A stretch of DNA of 64,000 nt from Escherichia coli. Its GTDB lineage: Bacteria; Pseudomonadota; Gammaproteobacteria; Enterobacterales; Enterobacteriaceae. The stretch is taken from assembly GCF_013315695.1 (NCBI RefSeq), contig NZ_CP054353.1. The stretch is one strand, 5' to 3'. Numbering within the stretch: position 1 is the stretch's first letter; each line of letters opens with the position of its first letter. This document shows positions 5,545-61,651 of this stretch, in pieces. Both the position numbers and the translations under genes were made by a program. The notes beneath the pieces were generated by a model. The model saw only the letters and a program-made list of their open reading frames with translations, ran no database searches and was not told where the DNA came from.

Positions 5545-6750
5545 TTAAACCCCTTTGACAACGTCAGCGTTGACCTGTGGAACCCCGATTTCAGCGGCCA
5601 GATTCATGGCGGCTATCACCAGGTTACTGACGGCCAGCGGATACAGCAGGCTGACCATATTTTTACGATGACTTCCCGGATTGCTCAGGCGGGCACGTAT
5701 GGCATCCACTGCGCTGGCGTCCATAATGTCCGTCAGTTGTTTACCGGCCCGTTGCAGTTTGAACGTCAGAAATTCTTCAAGGTTATTGTCCAGAGGCAGA
5801 AGTTCGACCACCTCACAACGCTGAACGACTTCACGGACTTCCATATTGCGTTCAGACAGTTTTGTCGCCAGTTCCGGCTGGCCAATCAGCACGATGGACA
5901 GCAGTTTTTTGAAACCGGACTCCAGCTCAAAAAAGCGTTTGAGGTGTTTCAGTGTCGGAATGGGCAGACTGTGGGCCTCCTCAATCACCAAAACGTGGCT
6001 GAACCCCGCCTGGCTGCTGTCTTTCAGGACGCGATGCAACTGGCGAAAGCGGGCGTCCTGACTGCGTCTGATGCTTTCCAGTGGTGCGATGGTACTGATA
6101 ATGGCTTCGGCAATCGCTGCTGCCTTCAGGGTTTTCCCTTTCACATCGTTGTCTTCCATAGCGATGATGTATGGCTCGATAACAATTACCGGCGCATTCT
6201 CGCGGTTGATACGTTCAGTCAGGTCGCGGCGCAGCGTGGATTTACCCGCACCGGACTCACCGATGACGGCCATAAACCCACCATGACGGGCTGTCTGGTA
6301 CAACGCCTCACGCACGTAGCGAATGTCCGGGGTGGTGAACACATCATCAGAACCCTGCATGGCTTCATCGGCGAACGGGTCACGGAAAAGACCAAACGCT
6401 TTTTTGGTTGCTGGAAATAACACCTGTTTTTTGAGTAACATATTCTCTTCCTCACTGAGGCTCGTTTTATCTGTGGTACCCGCTGTACGGGGCGTGGCTG
6501 CGCCCTGTACAGCATCAAAACTCTTCGTTGTATCAATCCCCTGACTTTCCAGCCAGGACGCAAGACGCCGGCGCACTTCTCCGGGGCTGGTGCGGGGCCA
6601 CGCGTTATGATTCACAATCTGGGCCAGCGTGGCCTCAGAAACATCGACAGCTCTCGCCACCACCGCCTGTGGGATACGGGCCTCTTTCAGTTGCTGCTTC
6701 AGTACCAGCATGTTTTCCTCCTCAGTTGCCGTTAACAATGCTGATAACAC
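5545..6750 (-). CDS. Transposition ATPase (AAA+; functional analogue of Mu B / TniB-like)
   Basis: 401 aa; Walker A GESGAGKST and Walker B-like HVLVIEEAH; N-terminal HTH-like segment; directly downstream of the transposase. Confidence 0.85.
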   Translation of the reverse strand: MLSALLTATEEENMLVLKQQLKEARIPQAVVARAVDVSEATLAQIVNHNAWPRTSPGEVRRRLASWLESQGIDTTKSFDAVQGAATPRTAGTTDKTSLSEEENMLLKKQVLFPATKKAFGLFRDPFADEAMQGSDDVFTTPDIRYVREALYQTARHGGFMAVIGESGAGKSTLRRDLTERINRENAPVIVIEPYIIAMEDNDVKGKTLKAAAIAEAIISTIAPLESIRRSQDARFRQLHRVLKDSSQAGFSHVLVIEEAHSLPIPTLKHLKRFFELESGFKKLLSIVLIGQPELATKLSERNMEVREVVQRCEVVELLPLDNNLEEFLTFKLQRAGKQLTDIMDASAVDAIRARLSNPGSHRKNMVSLLYPLAVSNLVIAAMNLAAEIGVPQVNADVVKGV

Positions 6751-8491
6751 TGCTGCGTGCCGGCGTGGTCAGCGTGGCCATGACTTCATCCAGTGCAGCT
6801 TCCGGTACGCCGTCCGGGTACTGTGCCGTTAACTGGCGGTAATGTTCCGGCGTCCAGGTAAGGCCGTCGGCGCTGAACTTATCGCGCAGGGCTTTCGCGG
6901 CCTCCACATGAGTCATGGGACGTTGTTCAGTGCGCGGCCCGCGTACGTCAGAGGCCTGACCACGCTTCGGCATATAGGCCGGAAGTGTGGTGTCGTCGAT
7001 ATGTTTATACGGGTCAAGCCGCCCGCCGAACGGCAGCGCCTTCGCCTTGCGTGCGGCGGCTGCATCTGCGGCGTTGTCTGTACCGGTAACCAGCGCTTCA
7101 GTTTCTTTTGCCGCCATCTGTGCCGAGGTTTCCGGCAGGGCTTTGTAACTTTCGCCAAATACCGCCGCGCCTTCAGCAAAGCCAAACTCGTTCTTTCTGA
7201 CCTCTTCGACCAGGAAGAACGTCTCGTGGCCGTCCTCACCGGTCAGAACCACCTGTGCCACATCGCTGCGCCATGGGTTACGGGTAATCATCAGTTTTTC
7301 ACCAACCAGTACGCCCGGTACCGTTGATACGTCAAATTCAGTGCCCCGGAACGAGACACGAAGTTTTGGCGTGACTTTGCGGAGTTCTGGTGCCGCCACA
7401 GCCAGTTCACGACATACCTCAACGGAAGGCGCTTTTTTCAGCTGCTCAGCAGTAATCTTCAGCCAGATATCCGTGCGGGTTTTACCGTGGCGGCTGTGAA
7501 CAGCCGTGGCGTTAAAGTGGCTGCGCCATTTCGCGGCCAGCGCGTTGAGTTCTTCCAGACTGTGAACCGGCCGGAACTTCAGCCCCGGCTCCAGCTTGCG
7601 TTCGATAATGTCACGCGCCTTTTCCACCTGTCCGGTGGCGCGGGCGTTATGCGGCTTGTGCGCTATCAGGTCGATGCCCAGTGAGCGGCACATGTTTTTC
7701 GTCATACCCGCGGTGTTTGCCGAGCCGGGGTCGAGATAGAGTATTTTCGGCACGCCGTGCAGCACGTCTGCGCCGCCACGCTCCTGCATGGCGTTGATAA
7801 GCACAGAGCACAGGTTCTCACCTGATTCCGCGCCCGTCACATACTCAACGTAAATCCAGCCGCTGGCATGGTCGGTAATCTCGTAACTCCACACGCGGTC
7901 ACTGGCGATACGGGCAAGGTTAGCGGGCTTGTTCTTGTAGAACTTCGCGCTGTCCATCACCTGCAGCCCTTTATGTCCATTGCTCAGGTAGTAAAGCGTG
8001 CAGAGTGAGGCGTCAATCTGCCAGACATGATTGGGATGCAGACTGGCCACTTCGGTATGTGGTGCAGGGGCATCCAGTTGTTCCGGGTGCAGGCCATAGT
8101 TACGCAGAGCACGGCTGATGGCATCTTCAGACAACGGGAAAAACTCACTGGTGGTTTCATCTGTTCTGCCTGCGGTGATAAAGCCGTTAGCCCGCAGGGT
8201 TTCCACTGCATCTGCGATGGAATAGAGACGCTTACCGTTCTTGCGGGTGGCCTCACGCAGTGTGGCAGATATCAGCGCGGCTTCGTCGCGGGTCAGGGCG
8301 CTGCGCCCGGCATCGGCGCGTTTTTTGCGTTTATCAGTCACAGAGACCTCCTTCAGCCTGCGCAGCAGAGTGGCGCGGGACATGCCAAGTTCAGCACAGG
8401 CAGCGTCGTATATTGCACCGCGTTTACCATGCCCCGCGTCACGTGCCGCGCGGGCGACATAAACCAGTCGTTCAGTCAGGGCAGCATTCAT
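6722..8491 (-). CDS. DDE transposase (Mu A-like, integrase-core fold)
   Basis: 589 aa; N-terminal HTH, central HVWQIDASL-type DDE core; paired with an AAA+ ATPase gene as in transposable phages. Confidence 0.85.
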   Translation of the reverse strand: MNAALTERLVYVARAARDAGHGKRGAIYDAACAELGMSRATLLRRLKEVSVTDKRKKRADAGRSALTRDEAALISATLREATRKNGKRLYSIADAVETLRANGFITAGRTDETTSEFFPLSEDAISRALRNYGLHPEQLDAPAPHTEVASLHPNHVWQIDASLCTLYYLSNGHKGLQVMDSAKFYKNKPANLARIASDRVWSYEITDHASGWIYVEYVTGAESGENLCSVLINAMQERGGADVLHGVPKILYLDPGSANTAGMTKNMCRSLGIDLIAHKPHNARATGQVEKARDIIERKLEPGLKFRPVHSLEELNALAAKWRSHFNATAVHSRHGKTRTDIWLKITAEQLKKAPSVEVCRELAVAAPELRKVTPKLRVSFRGTEFDVSTVPGVLVGEKLMITRNPWRSDVAQVVLTGEDGHETFFLVEEVRKNEFGFAEGAAVFGESYKALPETSAQMAAKETEALVTGTDNAADAAAARKAKALPFGGRLDPYKHIDDTTLPAYMPKRGQASDVRGPRTEQRPMTHVEAAKALRDKFSADGLTWTPEHYRQLTAQYPDGVPEAALDEVMATLTTPARSSVISIVNGN

Positions 8492-9419: not shown

Positions 9420-9791
9420 TTACAAACGACTACCTGAAATAACTCGTTGGTTGATTTCGTTAATACGATCCTGTGCACGCGCCATCTCGTGACTGTGAGC
9501 CATGGCGATCTGTAGTAACTGGATTCCCGGTGCGAAACGTCCGTTCTCTAATTTCATGGCCAGTCCCTCTTCAATAAGGGTATTAAGTGCTCGATTGATA
9601 TTCGCCGGGGACTCCCCCAGGGCTGATGCCAGTTCACCGTTAGAAACACCGTTCAGAGCATGACCGCGTAGAGCTTTGAGTACACGTAGGATGCGGGTCC
9701 CAGAACTGGAAATATTTACTTTACTCATGTCACATTTCCATTTTTGCAATATGTGATAACCTGTTGCATATGTGGAAAATTTATGCCGCAT
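9420..9791 (-). CDS. Putative DNA-binding protein (HTH-like)
   Basis: 123 aa; segment LNGVSNGELASALGESPANINRALNTLIEEGL resembles a winged-helix/HTH element. Confidence 0.4.
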   Translation of the reverse strand: MRHKFSTYATGYHILQKWKCDMSKVNISSSGTRILRVLKALRGHALNGVSNGELASALGESPANINRALNTLIEEGLAMKLENGRFAPGIQLLQIAMAHSHEMARAQDRINEINQRVISGSRL

Positions 9792-9969
9792 TTGACGTGG
9801 GTTTTAATCCCAGTTTTACGGCAATTTCATGGGCTTTGCCGTAACGAGCTTTGGTCTGTCCATTGAGAACACGATAGACCTCATTGCGGCTGTAGCCGTG
9901 TTCTTCGGCCCAGCGGGTAAACGTGATACCACGCTGACGGAAGAGATTTTTAACTTGTTCGGAAGTCAT
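9781..9969 (-). CDS. ner: Ner/Nlp-family DNA-binding protein
   Basis: 62 aa; resembles Ner/Nlp family (..TFTRWAEEHGYSRNEVYRVLNG..KARYGKAHEIAVKLG); first gene of the leftward early operon, divergent from the repressor. Confidence 0.75.
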   Translation of the reverse strand: MTSEQVKNLFRQRGITFTRWAEEHGYSRNEVYRVLNGQTKARYGKAHEIAVKLGLKPTSNAA

Positions 9970-10018
9970 TGTTGTCTCCTTTGTTGATGCAATGATGTTT
10001 GTTTTATATGTGATAGAT

Positions 10019-10038
10019 TATGAGAACTATTGTTCTCA
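10019..10038. promoter_or_regulatory. Candidate operator: 8-bp inverted repeat ATGAGAAC-N4-GTTCTCAT between the ner-like and repressor genes
   Basis: Perfect inverted repeat read directly from the sequence in the divergent control region. Confidence 0.35.
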
Positions 10039-10481
10039 TTGTCAATGAGGTTTGTGTGAATTTTGATTCTCTTTGCGCGTCGCGGTTCAAAGCTGAGCGT
10101 TCGCGGTTATCACTCAAGCAGGCTGAAGTAGCAGCCCTTTGTGGCGTTTCAAGAGAAATGTGGGGGAAATATGAACGAGGGGTTGCTGTTCCCGGAGGTG
10201 AGTTACTTGCAGCCTTTGCAAGAATTGGGGCCAATGTACAGTTCATTCTTACCGGGGAGTCATCAGGTATAACTTTATCACGTGATGAAATGGAGTTACT
10301 GCAGCACTACCGGCAGGCACCATTACAGGTCAAAGGTTCAGTTTTGTCGGCCTTGACTACTGGCTCCTCCAGAGAACGGGCGGAACAGGTTATTCATGGA
10401 GATGTTCTGGGGAATGTTATCAAAGGTAACGTAACCATAGGAACAGGTGGAATAATGAACAAAAATACCAAGAGAAGATGA
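10020..10481 (+). CDS. Phage repressor (XRE-family HTH); start codon uncertain, possibly GTG at 10056
   Basis: 153 aa; HTH LSLKQAEVAALCGVSREMWGKYERG; divergent from the early operon as for a c-type repressor. Confidence 0.7.
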   Translation: MRTIVLIVNEVCVNFDSLCASRFKAERSRLSLKQAEVAALCGVSREMWGKYERGVAVPGGELLAAFARIGANVQFILTGESSGITLSRDEMELLQHYRQAPLQVKGSVLSALTTGSSRERAEQVIHGDVLGNVIKGNVTIGTGGIMNKNTKRR

Positions 10482-11464
10482 GTAAAGAGAAGCAAACAGT
10501 TAACGGGGATGTGGGTAACGTTGTCAGCGGTGATGTTACCATTCATAACTATTCTGCTGACATACTTCCTTCGGCCCAGCAACCAATTTCGTTGCTGCAA
10601 AAACGCGATTTACACAGATTGATGGATGAATTGGTTGATCTGGGGGAAAGTAAGCGCGAGCTATGGATGACGATCCACACGAAACTTAATACCAAAACAG
10701 TTAATGAAATGACTGCGGCTGATTATCATGGTGCGGTTGAGATCCTTCAGAGATATGCACAACAGATCCAGAATATGAAGGACTGTAATCTTCTGGTCAG
10801 CAAAATAATGGCGCTTACTGACCCTGGGTATCGTCTTGACCGTGACAGATACTGTCTGAAGCATTTCGGTACAACCCATCTTAAAGGCCTAGACAAAGAG
10901 CAGTTGCAGGCTGTGTTTGGTTATTTTGATGATCTGCTGAATATTCGTGATGAGAGTAAAACTCTATCACCTCCATCGGAAAGCGGTGCAAAATCAGTCG
11001 CAACTGTACCAACCAGAAGCCGGAAGCCTCATGTAGTAGTGTTGGGGGGAGTGTTAGTTCTTGTAGCAATATTTTTCGTGGGAATGATTGTGTTCGCTGG
11101 TAAATGGGGAAATGCCAAAGCAGTAGCTTCTACTGAAACCAGCGTTTTTAACATTAAAACCAACGATAAAATAATAGAAGATTCCATCCCCGCACTGCGC
11201 AGCATGTTTCCAGGGTTAAATAAGTACTCAGATGATTTCCATTCGGTTTCAAGCTACAAGCAAAAAACGGGCTGGCATACCCTTAAATTTACTGTATCAG
11301 CAAAGGCATCCGTCCCCGAAAATTATAGTGTTAAGGGCAAGGTTTGTTACATTAACATAAGCCCTGATGGTAGTTATGCTCGGGTTTTGACTGCTCCATG
11401 TCGTTCACTGCTACTTGATCAGCAAAGCACTCCTGACAGTAAATACCGTTTTATTCTTAAATAG
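10478..11464 (+). CDS. Hypothetical bitopic membrane protein, translationally coupled to the repressor
   Basis: 328 aa; ATG overlaps the repressor stop (ATGA at 10478..10481); single hydrophobic helix VVVLGGVLVLVAIFFVGMIVFAG around aa 186-208; no family recognised. Confidence 0.6.
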   Translation: MSKEKQTVNGDVGNVVSGDVTIHNYSADILPSAQQPISLLQKRDLHRLMDELVDLGESKRELWMTIHTKLNTKTVNEMTAADYHGAVEILQRYAQQIQNMKDCNLLVSKIMALTDPGYRLDRDRYCLKHFGTTHLKGLDKEQLQAVFGYFDDLLNIRDESKTLSPPSESGAKSVATVPTRSRKPHVVVLGGVLVLVAIFFVGMIVFAGKWGNAKAVASTETSVFNIKTNDKIIEDSIPALRSMFPGLNKYSDDFHSVSSYKQKTGWHTLKFTVSAKASVPENYSVKGKVCYINISPDGSYARVLTAPCRSLLLDQQSTPDSKYRFILK

Positions 11465-11545
11465 AAAATAACAGCTGAATTACCATGGGATCAGAAAAAA
11501 GACAAAGGCGGCATCATGCTGCGTTCTGAAATTTTAATGTAAAAG

Positions 11546-12136
11546 GTGATGAACATGGCAGGGATTCAGGTTATCGCAGGAAGTTTTCCTAAAGGGTGGG
11601 CAAGCATGGGGTTCGGTACCATCGTGTTTGCCAAAAAAACAAAACAAGGCTTTCCTGAAAATATTGTATTAAATCTGAAAGAAGAGCTTTTATCGATTGA
11701 ACTTGCGGATAGTGAAGAGGAAAGCCGTATAGGTAAGGCGGCAGGCGCAGGTTTGCTTGGTGGATTAATCTTTGGTGGTGCAGGGTTGGTCATTGGAGGT
11801 TTGCTTGGTGCGGCGGACAAGACGAAAAAAACTATCACTTTTAAGGCAATGTTTACGGGAAATAGGTTACTTCTGGCTAAAACAGATTCAAAAACTTTTG
11901 TAAAACTTCAGTCAATTGCTGCTGATAATGCCCATAACGCATCTGTAATCAACATGAAGCAAACTAATAGGGGCGATGTTTCTTCTCGTAAACAACTAAC
12001 AGAAAATCCACAGCAGCAAGACTTACCTGCGCCCGCTACAACAGTAAAAATGACTGCCAAAGATAAGTTAGAATCGGCTCTTGGGCTGGGAATCATCGTT
12101 ATAGCTGTTTGGGCAATAATACACTTCTTTTTTTAG
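11546..12136 (+). CDS. Hypothetical membrane protein with glycine-zipper segment and C-terminal hydrophobic anchor
   Basis: 196 aa; GAGLLGGLIFGGAGLVIGGLLGAA and C-terminal LGLGIIVIAVWAIIHFFF; possible RBS aaaggtga upstream. Confidence 0.5.
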   Translation: MMNMAGIQVIAGSFPKGWASMGFGTIVFAKKTKQGFPENIVLNLKEELLSIELADSEEESRIGKAAGAGLLGGLIFGGAGLVIGGLLGAADKTKKTITFKAMFTGNRLLLAKTDSKTFVKLQSIAADNAHNASVINMKQTNRGDVSSRKQLTENPQQQDLPAPATTVKMTAKDKLESALGLGIIVIAVWAIIHFFF

Positions 12137-12137
12137 T

Positions 12138-12160
12138 GCAGCCCTTCAGGGCTGTTTCTG
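12138..12160. terminator. Hairpin between convergent genes (possible bidirectional terminator)
   Basis: gcagccc-ttca-gggctg stem-loop followed by tttctgtt, between ORF 11546..12136 (+) and 12174..12650 (-). Confidence 0.4.
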
Positions 12161-12173
12161 TTCAGGAGGTATC

Positions 12174-12650
12174 TTAAGGATTATCCGGGGCGTTTTCCTG
12201 TTTGCCGTACTTCGGAGACGAACAACATTCTGTTGGCTGACCGGTGAGTTTACGTAACTCCTTCATGAGCAGCTCCTGATCGTAAACTGTCATCAGTGCC
12301 GCAATGGTGGCATGCAGTGCATCGGGCAGTATCCAGGGTTGCCGGCCCGTGGGGCATATAACATCCAGCAGCTCATTCGTCCGACAGATACGCTCCTCGC
12401 CGTATGACAACAGGCCCTGTCCCGTGTATTCCTCTAGCCTGATCACTGTGCCACCCCGTGGCTTCTGCCAGGTCGTCAGATCTTCGCCATTCATACGGCG
12501 CTCATTCTCCACGTCAGCAGCATCGACAATGACGCTGTTTCCGAGTTCCTGTTTCACCATCTCTTCTATCCGCGCCAGTACGTAACTTTTACCGCTGCCC
12601 ACAGGACCGGACACAGTGACAGTGATGACCGGATTCAGTGTGTGCGTCAT
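12174..12650 (-). CDS. Small P-loop NTPase / kinase-like protein
   Basis: 158 aa; Walker A GPVGSGKS at residues 15-22; convergent with the preceding membrane-protein gene. Confidence 0.55.
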   Translation of the reverse strand: MTHTLNPVITVTVSGPVGSGKSYVLARIEEMVKQELGNSVIVDAADVENERRMNGEDLTTWQKPRGGTVIRLEEYTGQGLLSYGEERICRTNELLDVICPTGRQPWILPDALHATIAALMTVYDQELLMKELRKLTGQPTECCSSPKYGKQENAPDNP

Positions 12651-14831: not shown

Positions 14832-15142
14832 TGGTCGATATTACCCGGGTACGCCGCGAATCCCTGCGCTGGAGTCTGCTGGTTGCCCTGAACAAAACCC
14901 GCCCTTACACCGCCAGCGAAACGTTGCTGCTGGACGTGTCCCGCGCCATCTACCCGGACACCACGCAACTGGAGCTGCGCCGGGAGCTTGATTATCTGGC
15001 AGATCGCAAAATGGTGGAGCTGGAGAAGAGACCGTCCGGTGACTGGTTTGCCGATCTGAGTCGCCTTGGTGTGGATATTGTGGAATACACCGTGGAATGC
15101 GGCCCGGGTATTGCCCGACCGGAAAAATACTGGAGTGAGTGA
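14831..15142 (+). CDS. Hypothetical protein (Mu gp26-position)
   Basis: 103 aa ORF, translationally coupled to neighbours. Confidence 0.45.
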   Translation: MVDITRVRRESLRWSLLVALNKTRPYTASETLLLDVSRAIYPDTTQLELRRELDYLADRKMVELEKRPSGDWFADLSRLGVDIVEYTVECGPGIARPEKYWSE

Positions 15143-15687
15143 TTATGGGACGTCGCAGCAGCATTGATTCTCTGCCGACGGATGTCCGCCGCTGGCTGGA
15201 GCGGGCGCTGACGGAGAATAATTTCACCGGCTATGCTGAACTTGAAAGTTTGTTAAAAGAGAGGGGATATGTGATAACCCGCTCCTCCCTGCAGCGGTTC
15301 GGCTACAAAATGGAGCAGCAACTGGCCCGTGTTCGTGCGGCAACTGAAGCAGCCAGGCTGATGGCTCGTGAAGCGGGGGATGATGCGGATGACCGTTCTG
15401 CGGGACTGATGACGTTGATCCAGACGGAGATGATCGACATCCTGATGCGTCTGCAACAAGTCAGTGACGAGAATGATCCGACTGATCGGGCGAAATTGCT
15501 GGCCACCGCTTCCCGCAATATTGCGACCCTGACCCGCGCCTCTGTCAATCTCAAGCGTTTTCAGAGTGAGGTCAAGGAAAAAGCAGAACTTGCAGCGAAT
15601 GCGGCCGAGAAAATTGCCCGTAAGGGCGGATTGTCAAGCGACGCAGTACAGGCACTTCGTCGCGAGATTCTGGGGATTGCCACATGA
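15139..15687 (+). CDS. Terminase small subunit-like protein (Mu gp27-position)
   Basis: 182 aa immediately upstream of and overlapping the large terminase gene. Confidence 0.6.
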   Translation: MIMGRRSSIDSLPTDVRRWLERALTENNFTGYAELESLLKERGYVITRSSLQRFGYKMEQQLARVRAATEAARLMAREAGDDADDRSAGLMTLIQTEMIDILMRLQQVSDENDPTDRAKLLATASRNIATLTRASVNLKRFQSEVKEKAELAANAAEKIARKGGLSSDAVQALRREILGIAT

Positions 15688-61348: not shown

Positions 61349-61424
<76 letters not shown>

Positions 61425-61469
61425 GTTTAAAAGACATCGGCGTCAAGCGGATGTCTGGCTGAAAGGCCT

Positions 61470-61543
61470 GAAGAATTTGGCGCGTTAACAAAGCGGTTAT
61501 GTAGCGGATTGCAAATCCGTCTAGTCCGGTTCGACTCCGGAAC
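61470..61543 (+). tRNA. cysT: tRNA-Cys (anticodon GCA)
   Basis: GGCGCGTTAACAAAGCGGTTATGTAGCGGATTGCAAATCCGTCTAGTCCGGTTCGACTCCGGAACGCGCCTCCA. Confidence 0.9.
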
Positions 61544-61564
61544 GCGCCTCCACTTTCTTCCCGA

Positions 61565-61651
61565 GCCCGGATGGTGGAATCGGTAGACACAAGGGATTTA
61601 AAATCCCTCGGCGTTCGCGCTGTGCGGGTTCAAGTCCCGCTCCGGGTACCA
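61565..61651 (+). tRNA. leuZ: tRNA-Leu (anticodon TAA)
   Basis: GCCCGGATGGTGGAATCGGTAGACACAAGGGATTTAAAATCCC...GGGTTCAAGTCCCGCTCCGGGTACCA; long variable arm. Confidence 0.9.

Follow-up and report, generated by a model that had tools for sequence, protein, structure and literature searches.

A 64,000-nucleotide stretch of Escherichia coli DNA (RefSeq assembly GCF_013315695.1, contig NZ_CP054353.1), called the window throughout, carries in its chromosomal sequence a transposable prophage of the Bcepmuvirus type (BcepMu-like). Directly behind the immunity repressor of this prophage lies a gene, open reading frame 1 (ORF1), that encodes a single-helix membrane protein. The C-terminal tail of the repressor and the N-terminal head of ORF1 have a motif of about 17-24 residues in common, and this motif co-varies between the two proteins across related prophages. 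Judged from the sequences, ORF1 may be a membrane-anchored anti-repressor or repressor modulator, paired with the repressor by the tail/head motif and co-translated with it; we favor this role tentatively and at somewhat less than even confidence. Through the pairing of repressor and ORF1, the decision between lysis and lysogeny is probably coupled to the cell membrane. An earlier note on this DNA had described ORF1 as wired to the repressor, and the match between tail and head ties the two more tightly than the overlap of their reading frames shows. The pair comprises the following features.

10020-10481, plus strand: immunity repressor with an XRE-type helix-turn-helix (HTH) domain
10389..10451, plus strand: C-terminal tail motif of the repressor, VIHGDVLGNVIKGNVTIGTGG (residues 124-144), conserved in E. 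coli, Yersinia, Serratia and Salmonella repressors
10478-11464, plus strand: ORF1, 328 residues, the membrane partner of the repressor
10499..10552, plus strand: N-terminal head motif of ORF1, VNGDVGNVVSGDVTIHNY (residues 8-25)
10568..10957, plus strand: cytoplasmic helical Flk_N domain of ORF1 (residues ~31-160), from NCBIfam Flk, PF27202 and an AlphaFold2 (AF2) model with a predicted local distance difference test (pLDDT) score > 90
11030..11098, plus strand: single transmembrane helix of ORF1 (residues ~185-207), read from the sequence, with RSRKPH just before it in agreement with the positive-inside rule
11138..11464, plus strand: periplasmic alpha+beta domain of ORF1 (residues ~221-328)

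The match between the repressor tail and the ORF1 head has a z score of 8.6 against shuffled sequences. Within the head, the core G13-G18 (GNVVSG) is invariant in 18 ORF1 homologues of 44-82% overall identity, and the remainder is nearly so. A tail/head match is present in every P2-like and nearly every Mu-like locus examined and in seven of eight diverse family members that were looked up; in nine independent pairs it is significant against shuffles, with z scores of 3.9-12.3. The P2-like Escherichia phage 520873 has a repressor homologous to that of the window which ends with ...ISGGNNRIAGRDYNE, and its next gene begins ...SNGSNNRVAGRDFHE. In 80 P2-like loci from IMG/VR, all 43 distinct pairs carry ...GNR[VI]AGRD[YF]NE... 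on both proteins. The negative controls, namely ORF2 of the window, the 203-residue protein of E. coli SF-088, the lipoprotein of phage KP12 and a Citrobacter repressor/ORF2 pair, had no tail/head match (z -0.8 to 2.5).

Several classes of the motif co-vary between tail and head. For 23 dereplicated pairs, the mean score was 48.4 for cognate combinations and 25.6 for non-cognate ones, and none of 100,000 permutations attained the observed cognate sum. Repressors with cores 62-68% identical to that of the window bear a class II tail and have a class II partner, and in locus L115 the core is window-like but tail and head both belong to class III. The tail is a module that tracks the partner rather than the DNA-binding core. 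The DNA segments encoding the two motifs are only 48-67% identical and use different codons at about half of the identical residues, and thus the motif is kept at the protein level. The codon evidence rules out a recent duplication or gene conversion as the source of the match. One stretch of DNA read in two frames is ruled out as well, since the segments lie approximately 100 nucleotides apart. ORF1 is in the -1 frame relative to the repressor with no canonical slippery heptamer for a frameshift fusion, and the P2-like pairs have gaps of 2-35 nucleotides and various frames.

A tail-blind sample was formed by gathering repressor homologues by their core sequence alone, giving 60 distinct loci. 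The match was found in 32 of the 33 loci with an Flk_N partner. Repressors with short or helical C termini scored at background level and had unrelated genes next to them. Eight tail-bearing repressors had partners outside the Flk_N family, and the matching head still stood at the start of each. At least six of these eight partners are membrane proteins: four consist of the head and two helices (L158, L192, L175, L197), one of the head, a zinc ribbon (CxxC...CxxC) and two helices (L182), and one of the head, another domain and a helix (L183). The zinc ribbon arrangement recurs in L134 and L144, both counted as Flk_N hits. No transmembrane segment was predicted for the short partners in L181 and L186, and the small membrane partners lacking Flk_N had no match in PHROG. 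These architectures indicate that the near-constant features of the partner are the matching head and a membrane anchor, with a variable spacer between them that is usually the Flk_N domain. In five loci (L118, L164, L165, L176 and L179), the repressors end in a helix (...VLKLVINH or ...KLVVNR) and the downstream membrane protein begins with a helical acidic segment; helical ends may be an alternative docking solution for the same pairing.

Because the motif co-varies by class, independently of the rest of the repressor, and the two proteins are made together, a direct like-with-like contact between tail and head is the best explanation of the match. We infer this physical contact, and with it a regulatory consequence, from the observed gene linkage, motif match, co-variation, modularity and topology. 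The contact would be made between beta-strands and, the partner being anchored, would recruit the repressor to that part of the cell, the inner membrane. Part of the repressor could be held, titrated or otherwise modulated there. Whether repression is kept or lost would then depend on the condition of the partner and, by way of its transmembrane and periplasmic parts, possibly on that of the envelope. The periplasmic domain of ORF1 may be a sensor or else an unrelated passenger that serves some other purpose in the lysogen.

A different use of the same motifs would be that of an amyloid-type signaling pair, in which a clustered membrane partner templates the repressor tail into an aggregate and so switches the repressor off. 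Amyloid signaling motifs have been found by searching for a shared motif in adjacent gene products (10.1101/2020.01.06.895854), and one such pair, Bab/Agp (BASS11), occurs in E. coli prophage islands (10.1101/2024.11.07.622273). The repressor and ORF1 bear the signature by which these systems were discovered, a co-varying motif of about 20 residues at the C terminus of the upstream product and the N terminus of the downstream one; in Bab/Agp, in the Bell/NLR pairs (BASS1-10) and in the fungal HET-S/NWD2 pair, the motif families likewise co-vary within pairs. The class I motif is moreover rich in G, N, V and I, free of proline and disordered in monomer AF2 models. Aggregation of a repressor has a precedent in the CTX phage, where the anti-repressor RstC aggregates the repressor RstR. 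However, in class II motifs an R and a D/E are conserved at matching positions of the two partners, and because an in-register parallel amyloid would stack like charges, an antiparallel strand pair fits this class better. In the known pairs, a sensor (an NLR or TPR protein) is joined to an effector that causes death by forming pores, whereas here an XRE repressor is joined to an anchored protein with Flk_N, a zinc ribbon or two transmembrane helices, and a HTH repressor with an anchored protein matches no described amyloid-signaling architecture. Amyloid templating is judged distinctly unlikely.

The linkage of the two genes extends well beyond the window. The start codon of ORF1 overlaps the repressor stop codon (agATGAgt, 10478-10481), and homologues of ORF1 stand directly behind the repressor with a 4-bp overlap in BcepMu-like prophages of E. 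coli, Yersinia, Serratia and Salmonella. The genes after ORF1 vary in the latter three genera, being a 249-residue protein and Dam, Dam only, or small genes. All eight diverse family members lie in Mu-like or P2-like surroundings with an HTH gene upstream, which is the immediate neighbor in seven of them and is separated by one gene in L116. Such an HTH gene also stands upstream in all 80 P2-like IMG/VR loci, with gaps of 2-17 nucleotides between the repressor and partner genes. In the P2-like prophage L116, an 88-residue gene (L116 2095-2361) lies between the repressor and the Flk_N partner, and because of this insertion the pair is not always overlapping. The locus L154 (IMG/VR 2778261154_000006) has a tail-bearing repressor followed by a second, different repressor gene of 134 residues and no partner, an arrangement that reflects either tandem immunity genes or a junction made by recombination.

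In sequenced phage isolates, ORF1, ORF2 and the P-loop gene that follows them in the window are nearly absent by tblastn, with parts found only in PhiKM, KP12, Phi06_2974 B and 520873. In phage 520873 (NC_049344; L004 2784-3396), the Flk_N partner lies between repressor and integrase, where it is split by a frameshift and is not annotated. As 520873 is a P2-like isolate, this phage at least can form plaques without the partner.

The earlier note had found no recognized family for the three genes behind the repressor. Two of them do belong to named families, the N-terminal domain of ORF1 to PF27202 (Flk_N) and ORF2 to PF27000 (PH_gly_zipper), but neither family is functionally characterized. 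The NCBIfam Flk model matches ORF1 with E 2.9e-12 and 46.6 bits over residues 19-147 only, below the equivalog cut-off of NF007987 (353 bits), so that ORF1 does not qualify as Flk over its whole length. Precomputed PF27202 matches are listed for P0001, which is 100% identical to ORF1, and for its homologues, several of them flagged as weak; Pfam-A scans of the three proteins gave nothing at E <= 0.001. An AF2 model of ORF1 built on an 18-row alignment has a disordered stretch at residues 1-30, a confident helical domain at 31-160, a transmembrane helix at 189-207 and then a confident alpha+beta domain at 221-328. With Foldseek, this model matched Flk-annotated proteins in AFDB50 at E 2e-10 to 1e-5, all matches there being uncharacterized Flk-like proteins and lipoproteins, and the best match in the Protein Data Bank (PDB) had E 0.14. 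A sequence search of the PDB with ORF1, ORF2 and the P-loop family returned nothing beyond P-loop matches.

This homology leads to the question whether ORF1 is a phage copy of Flk that shifts the timing of flagellar type III secretion, and hence motility, in lysogens independently of the repressor. In Salmonella and E. coli, Flk (Fluke, RflH) inhibits the switch in flagellar secretion specificity; it is a cytoplasmic protein, tail-anchored in the inner membrane, that acts on the flagellar export gate (PMC13344023). ORF1 has the homologous cytoplasmic domain and an inner-membrane helix C-terminal to it, and most of its phage relatives are tail-anchored too. On the other hand, Flk is chromosomal and has repeated Flk_N units, no head motif and no repressor partner; ORF1 has a single unit, the head motif and, instead of a Flk-like helix at the extreme C terminus, a helix that is followed by a 120-residue domain. 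At 46.6 bits, ORF1 scores far under the Flk cut-off, and a flagellar role would leave both the co-variation of tail and head and the partners without Flk_N unexplained. We consider such a role very improbable, and the label "flagella biosynthesis regulator" on such prophage genes is an annotation artefact.

A profile search of 1.84 billion representative sequences retrieved just 114 relatives of ORF1. They fall into tail-anchored proteins of ~190-220 residues with the head motif, Flk_N and a C-terminal helix, lipoproteins of ~130-200 residues, and a few ORF1-like fusions. The C-terminal domain of ORF1, which contains two invariant cysteines (C290 and C308), exists elsewhere as a free lipoprotein with a lipobox, in KP12 (E 5e-17) and in L018 (E 8e-19), and the domain in ORF1 is accordingly periplasmic. 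L018 has the order repressor, Flk_N protein (206 residues) and lipoprotein (175 residues), and in KP12 the repressor lacks the tail motif and has only the lipoprotein behind it. Because L018 keeps the unfused order, ORF1 is taken to be a fusion of two neighbors, its periplasmic domain having come from the adjacent lipoprotein gene. Some free lipoprotein homologues (P0087, 318 residues, and relatives) have an extra C-terminal region of ~180 residues that ends in a conserved cysteine-rich tail (...GCL.I[YF]SP...W.C).

Profile matches of several relatives, most of them weak, agree with a repressor-binding role of the family. The PHROG 245 profile "anti-repressor Ant" matches the Flk_N relatives P0114 (E 2.3e-8) and P0083 (6e-6), four others at ~1e-3 to 5e-3 and P0070 at 0.18; PHROG 2127 was also matched. 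The matches cover the central or C-terminal part of the profiles. Pfam gave only faint matches, to ORF6C and GemA. The classic representative of Ant-type anti-repressors is that of phage P22. The proposed binding of a repressor is a further likeness to this type; Ant proteins, unlike ORF1, are soluble, are made from separately controlled promoters and have no terminal motif in common with their target.

Several points weigh against ORF1 as an anti-repressor or modulator. ORF1 itself has no Ant match in PHROG, the matches being confined to relatives and mostly weak. Eight of the 23 pairs in the permutation test had been taken in for scoring well, and one lineage (L118, L164 and L176) is without the beta-type motif. 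In an AF2 model of the repressor fused to ORF1(1-165), built on a paired 23-row alignment, the motifs were disordered (pLDDT < 50) and undocked, a result that is uninformative rather than negative. An anti-repressor made at a fixed ratio to its own repressor needs an extra control step. Finally, control could run in reverse, with the repressor tail restraining a membrane effector.

The last point can be put as an explanation in its own right, which is doubtful but has several features on its side. According to it, lysogens express ORF1, alone or together with ORF2, as a membrane effector of superinfection exclusion or abortive infection, which is silenced by the repressor tail and freed when the repressor is lost or titrated, much as the tail of an HTH antitoxin acts on its toxin. 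The position in the lysogenic operon, the membrane location, the antitoxin-like gene order with a 4-bp overlap and the variable cargo slot all speak for this, and the minimal partners, a head with two transmembrane helices, look like small membrane effectors. The free lipoprotein form of the periplasmic domain beside tail-less repressors suggests a function of its own in the lysogen. The type II toxin-antitoxin systems HipBA and HigBA, with antitoxins of the XRE-HTH kind, similarly have an upstream HTH protein with a flexible C-terminal tail and overlapping start and stop codons, and the repressor HTH gives weak matches to the HipB, MqsA and PezA models. Known antitoxin tails, however, do not bind their toxins by a like-with-like motif, and sequence identity between tail and head is not a feature of toxin-antitoxin systems. 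A search for ORF1 among toxin families in Pfam, NCBIfam, PHROGs and PADLOC gave no match, nor was there any PHROG or NCBIfam match to known exclusion or abortive-infection families or any significant PADLOC match. Moreover, the pair is conserved with the immunity module across genera, unlike a moron that comes and goes.

Exclusion genes behind a repressor are known from phage lambda, where rexA and rexB follow cI in the lysogenic operon and include an inner-membrane protein. The position behind the repressor, the co-transcription in the lysogen that is predicted for ORF1, and the membrane protein are alike; rexA and rexB have no sequence relation to the genes described here and no motif in common with the repressor, whereas here the link is the repressor protein itself. 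Control of repressors from the membrane is known as well, Mlc being sequestered by PtsG, and BlaR1 and MecR1 acting on BlaI and MecI. As proposed for ORF1, a membrane protein encoded with a cytoplasmic repressor or acting on it provides a route from envelope to transcription, but there is no homology, and ORF1 has no protease or transporter domain. No Mlc/PtsG or BlaR1/MecR1 system is known from phages.

The start of the repressor is probably not the listed ATG (10020), which has no Shine-Dalgarno sequence and falls within a leftward promoter and a palindrome, but a GTG at 10056 that would give 141 residues. GAGG stands 5 nucleotides before this codon, and the repressor homologues of Salmonella and Serratia are called at 141 and 140 residues. 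The repressor gene is divergent from the early operon (ner-like, IclR-like and transposase genes), and repressor and late genes run rightward. The leftward early genes also include those for a DUF3102 protein and an IclR-like HTH protein. The palindrome ATGAGAACtattGTTCTCAT is present as a single copy in the window, with at least one match at <= 3 mismatches in 21 of 100 shuffles, and is a plausible candidate operator of the leftward promoter. Features around the pair are listed below.

6722-8491, minus strand: transposase, leftward early gene
9781-9969, minus strand: BcepMu_gp16/ner-like protein, leftward early gene
10017..10045, minus strand: sigma-70-like promoter TTGACA-17-CATAAT of the early operon, a consensus match only
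10020-10039: perfect palindrome ATGAGAACtattGTTCTCAT between the hexamers of the strong leftward promoter match, candidate operator
11546-12136, plus strand: ORF2, 196 residues, with the glycine zipper GKAAGAGLLGGLIFGGAGLVIGGLLGAA and a C-terminal hydrophobic anchor
12138..12165, plus strand: terminator-like hairpin GCAGCCCTTCAGGGCTGT with a T-rich tail between the convergent ORF2 and P-loop gene, from a consensus scan only
12174-12650, minus strand: small P-loop protein, 158 residues, with Walker A GPVGSGKS at 12585-12608
from 12781, plus strand: holin, first gene of the holin/SLT lysis cassette, after the PGAP annotation of the IAI39 locus (99.9% identical)
from 13134, plus strand: SLT lysin, with packaging genes next

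The three reading frames behind the repressor, the ATGA overlap and the single helix of ORF1 are all present as the earlier note had described them, as are the Walker A motif of the convergent gene and, in ORF2, the glycine zipper and the anchor at the C terminus. ORF2 most likely starts at ATG 11555, giving 193 residues; this is the PGAP start, and the PHROG profile alignment begins at residue 4 of the listed frame. Its family, PH_gly_zipper, is functionally uncharacterized. In Citrobacter, ORF2 stands straight behind a different repressor (Phage_CI_repr) and ORF1 is absent. ORF2 is independent tail-anchored cargo, a moron at the end of the lysogenic operon, whose distal part is best explained as repressor, ORF1, ORF2 and a putative terminator. 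A role of ORF2 in exclusion or membrane perturbation is possible, without specific support.

In the P-loop protein, Walker A comprises residues 15-22, of which G15, P16, G18, G20, K21 and S22 are invariant in 16 homologues and V17 and S19 nearly so; VIVDAAD (residues 40-46) is a possible Walker B. Matches in Pfam, NCBIfam and the PDB all had E >= 0.0036 and covered the P-loop only, and the names "ABC transporter ATPase" and "KAP NTPase" given to the family are over-annotation. Members of the family are found only in E. coli and close relatives, in forms of 141, 158, 182 and 247 residues. The window has a short form, most relatives having 247 residues; the 141- and 158-residue forms lack the 90-residue C-terminal domain, and the 182-residue forms lack residues ~51-125, a pattern that suggests the gene has recombined internally more than once at the cargo boundary. 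The G+C content at third codon positions is 0.60 for the P-loop gene, like the phage backbone, and 0.36-0.40 for repressor, ORF1 and ORF2. The P-loop gene is predicted to be transcribed separately, in divergence from the holin gene; it stands outside the repressor module and belongs to the accessory region that adjoins the lysis genes. Its product is an orphan mini-NTPase-like protein, and the gene has its own putative promoter region facing the holin gene.

In an earlier view, the module was variable cargo rather than phage core, which the genome comparison bears out. Part of a 3.8-kb query was matched by 635 of 5426 complete E. coli genomes, mostly in the flanks; 99 of the 635 hold the whole module and the others have different cargo. 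The query is 100% identical in one E. coli strain and 99.9-100% identical in several more. At least three layouts of the slot exist in E. coli. Layout A is the arrangement of the window. In layout B (SF-088), the same repressor and ORF1 are followed by an unrelated 203-residue protein, which showed no similarity to ORF2 when compared with it, and a DUF2441 protein, with no P-loop gene. Layout C, the commonest, combines another repressor with a Dam methylase, two small genes and a P-loop protein in a version of 242-247 residues. The module is likewise not core to BcepMu-like phages, as other genes occupy the slot in PhiKM, KP12 and most related E. coli prophages.

It had also been supposed that ORF1, ORF2 and the P-loop protein form one three-gene defense system, for which the adjacency of the genes in 99 E. 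coli genomes speaks. The genes nevertheless assort independently: repressor and ORF1 are the conserved unit, and ORF2 and the P-loop gene go separate ways. The P-loop gene differs in composition and is encoded on the other strand, beyond the terminator-like hairpin; in most related E. coli prophages its neighbor is unrelated cargo, a Dam methylase. The defense assignment likewise did not hold up against PADLOC-DB 2.0, in which no significant match was obtained for any of the three proteins; the best ORF1 match had E 0.014 over a 40-residue stretch, ORF2 had none, and the P-loop protein matched at the level of Walker A (E >= 0.007). A single three-gene system is extremely improbable, and the region is not to be scored as one defense system. 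A role of ORF2 or of the ORF1 periplasmic domain in exclusion or defense is possible; nothing that was found points there specifically.

Two side observations concern the surroundings of the module. The DUF3486/Mu gp27-like gene is intact in the window (15139-15687); the copy in IAI39 (L001 11743-12288) has an internal stop and carries a pseudogene annotation. The DsrA small RNA lies at 40034-40120 of the window (Rfam, 102.5 bits) and a tRNA Gly-Cys-Leu cluster at 61349-61651, and from these positions the host chromosome resumes before ~40 kb, so that the prophage adjoins the dsrA region.

That a repressor has a protein partner is an old idea. What seems new is to find together an anchored partner co-translated with the repressor, a terminal motif matched on both proteins, exchangeable spacers and a broad distribution in Mu-like and P2-like prophages; no description of the pair was found in the literature on Flk, prophage repressors, tail-anchored proteins and BcepMu morons, nor in family libraries. 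The pair is widespread, its window form being present in at least 99 complete E. coli genomes and its P2-like form in well over 100 IMG/VR prophage contigs, and its motif classes are natural swap experiments.

Little is understood of how temperate phages that are not SOS-inducible, among them many of the Mu-like and P2-like kinds, leave lysogeny. A more far-reaching proposal, which we hold to be rather unlikely as a whole, is that many such phages of Proteobacteria use a two-protein switch of a repressor and an anchored partner with identical, co-evolving beta-motifs, possibly by prion- or amyloid-like templating. Events at the membrane or envelope could then inactivate the repressor through sequestration or aggregation and cause SOS-independent induction, ORF1 being a version that has acquired a periplasmic sensor. 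If the contact is amyloid-like, the matched-motif signaling of cell-death systems would reach into transcriptional control. A membrane partner with a copy of the repressor tail would, if the reading is true, be a concrete candidate for a route from the envelope to the genetic switch.

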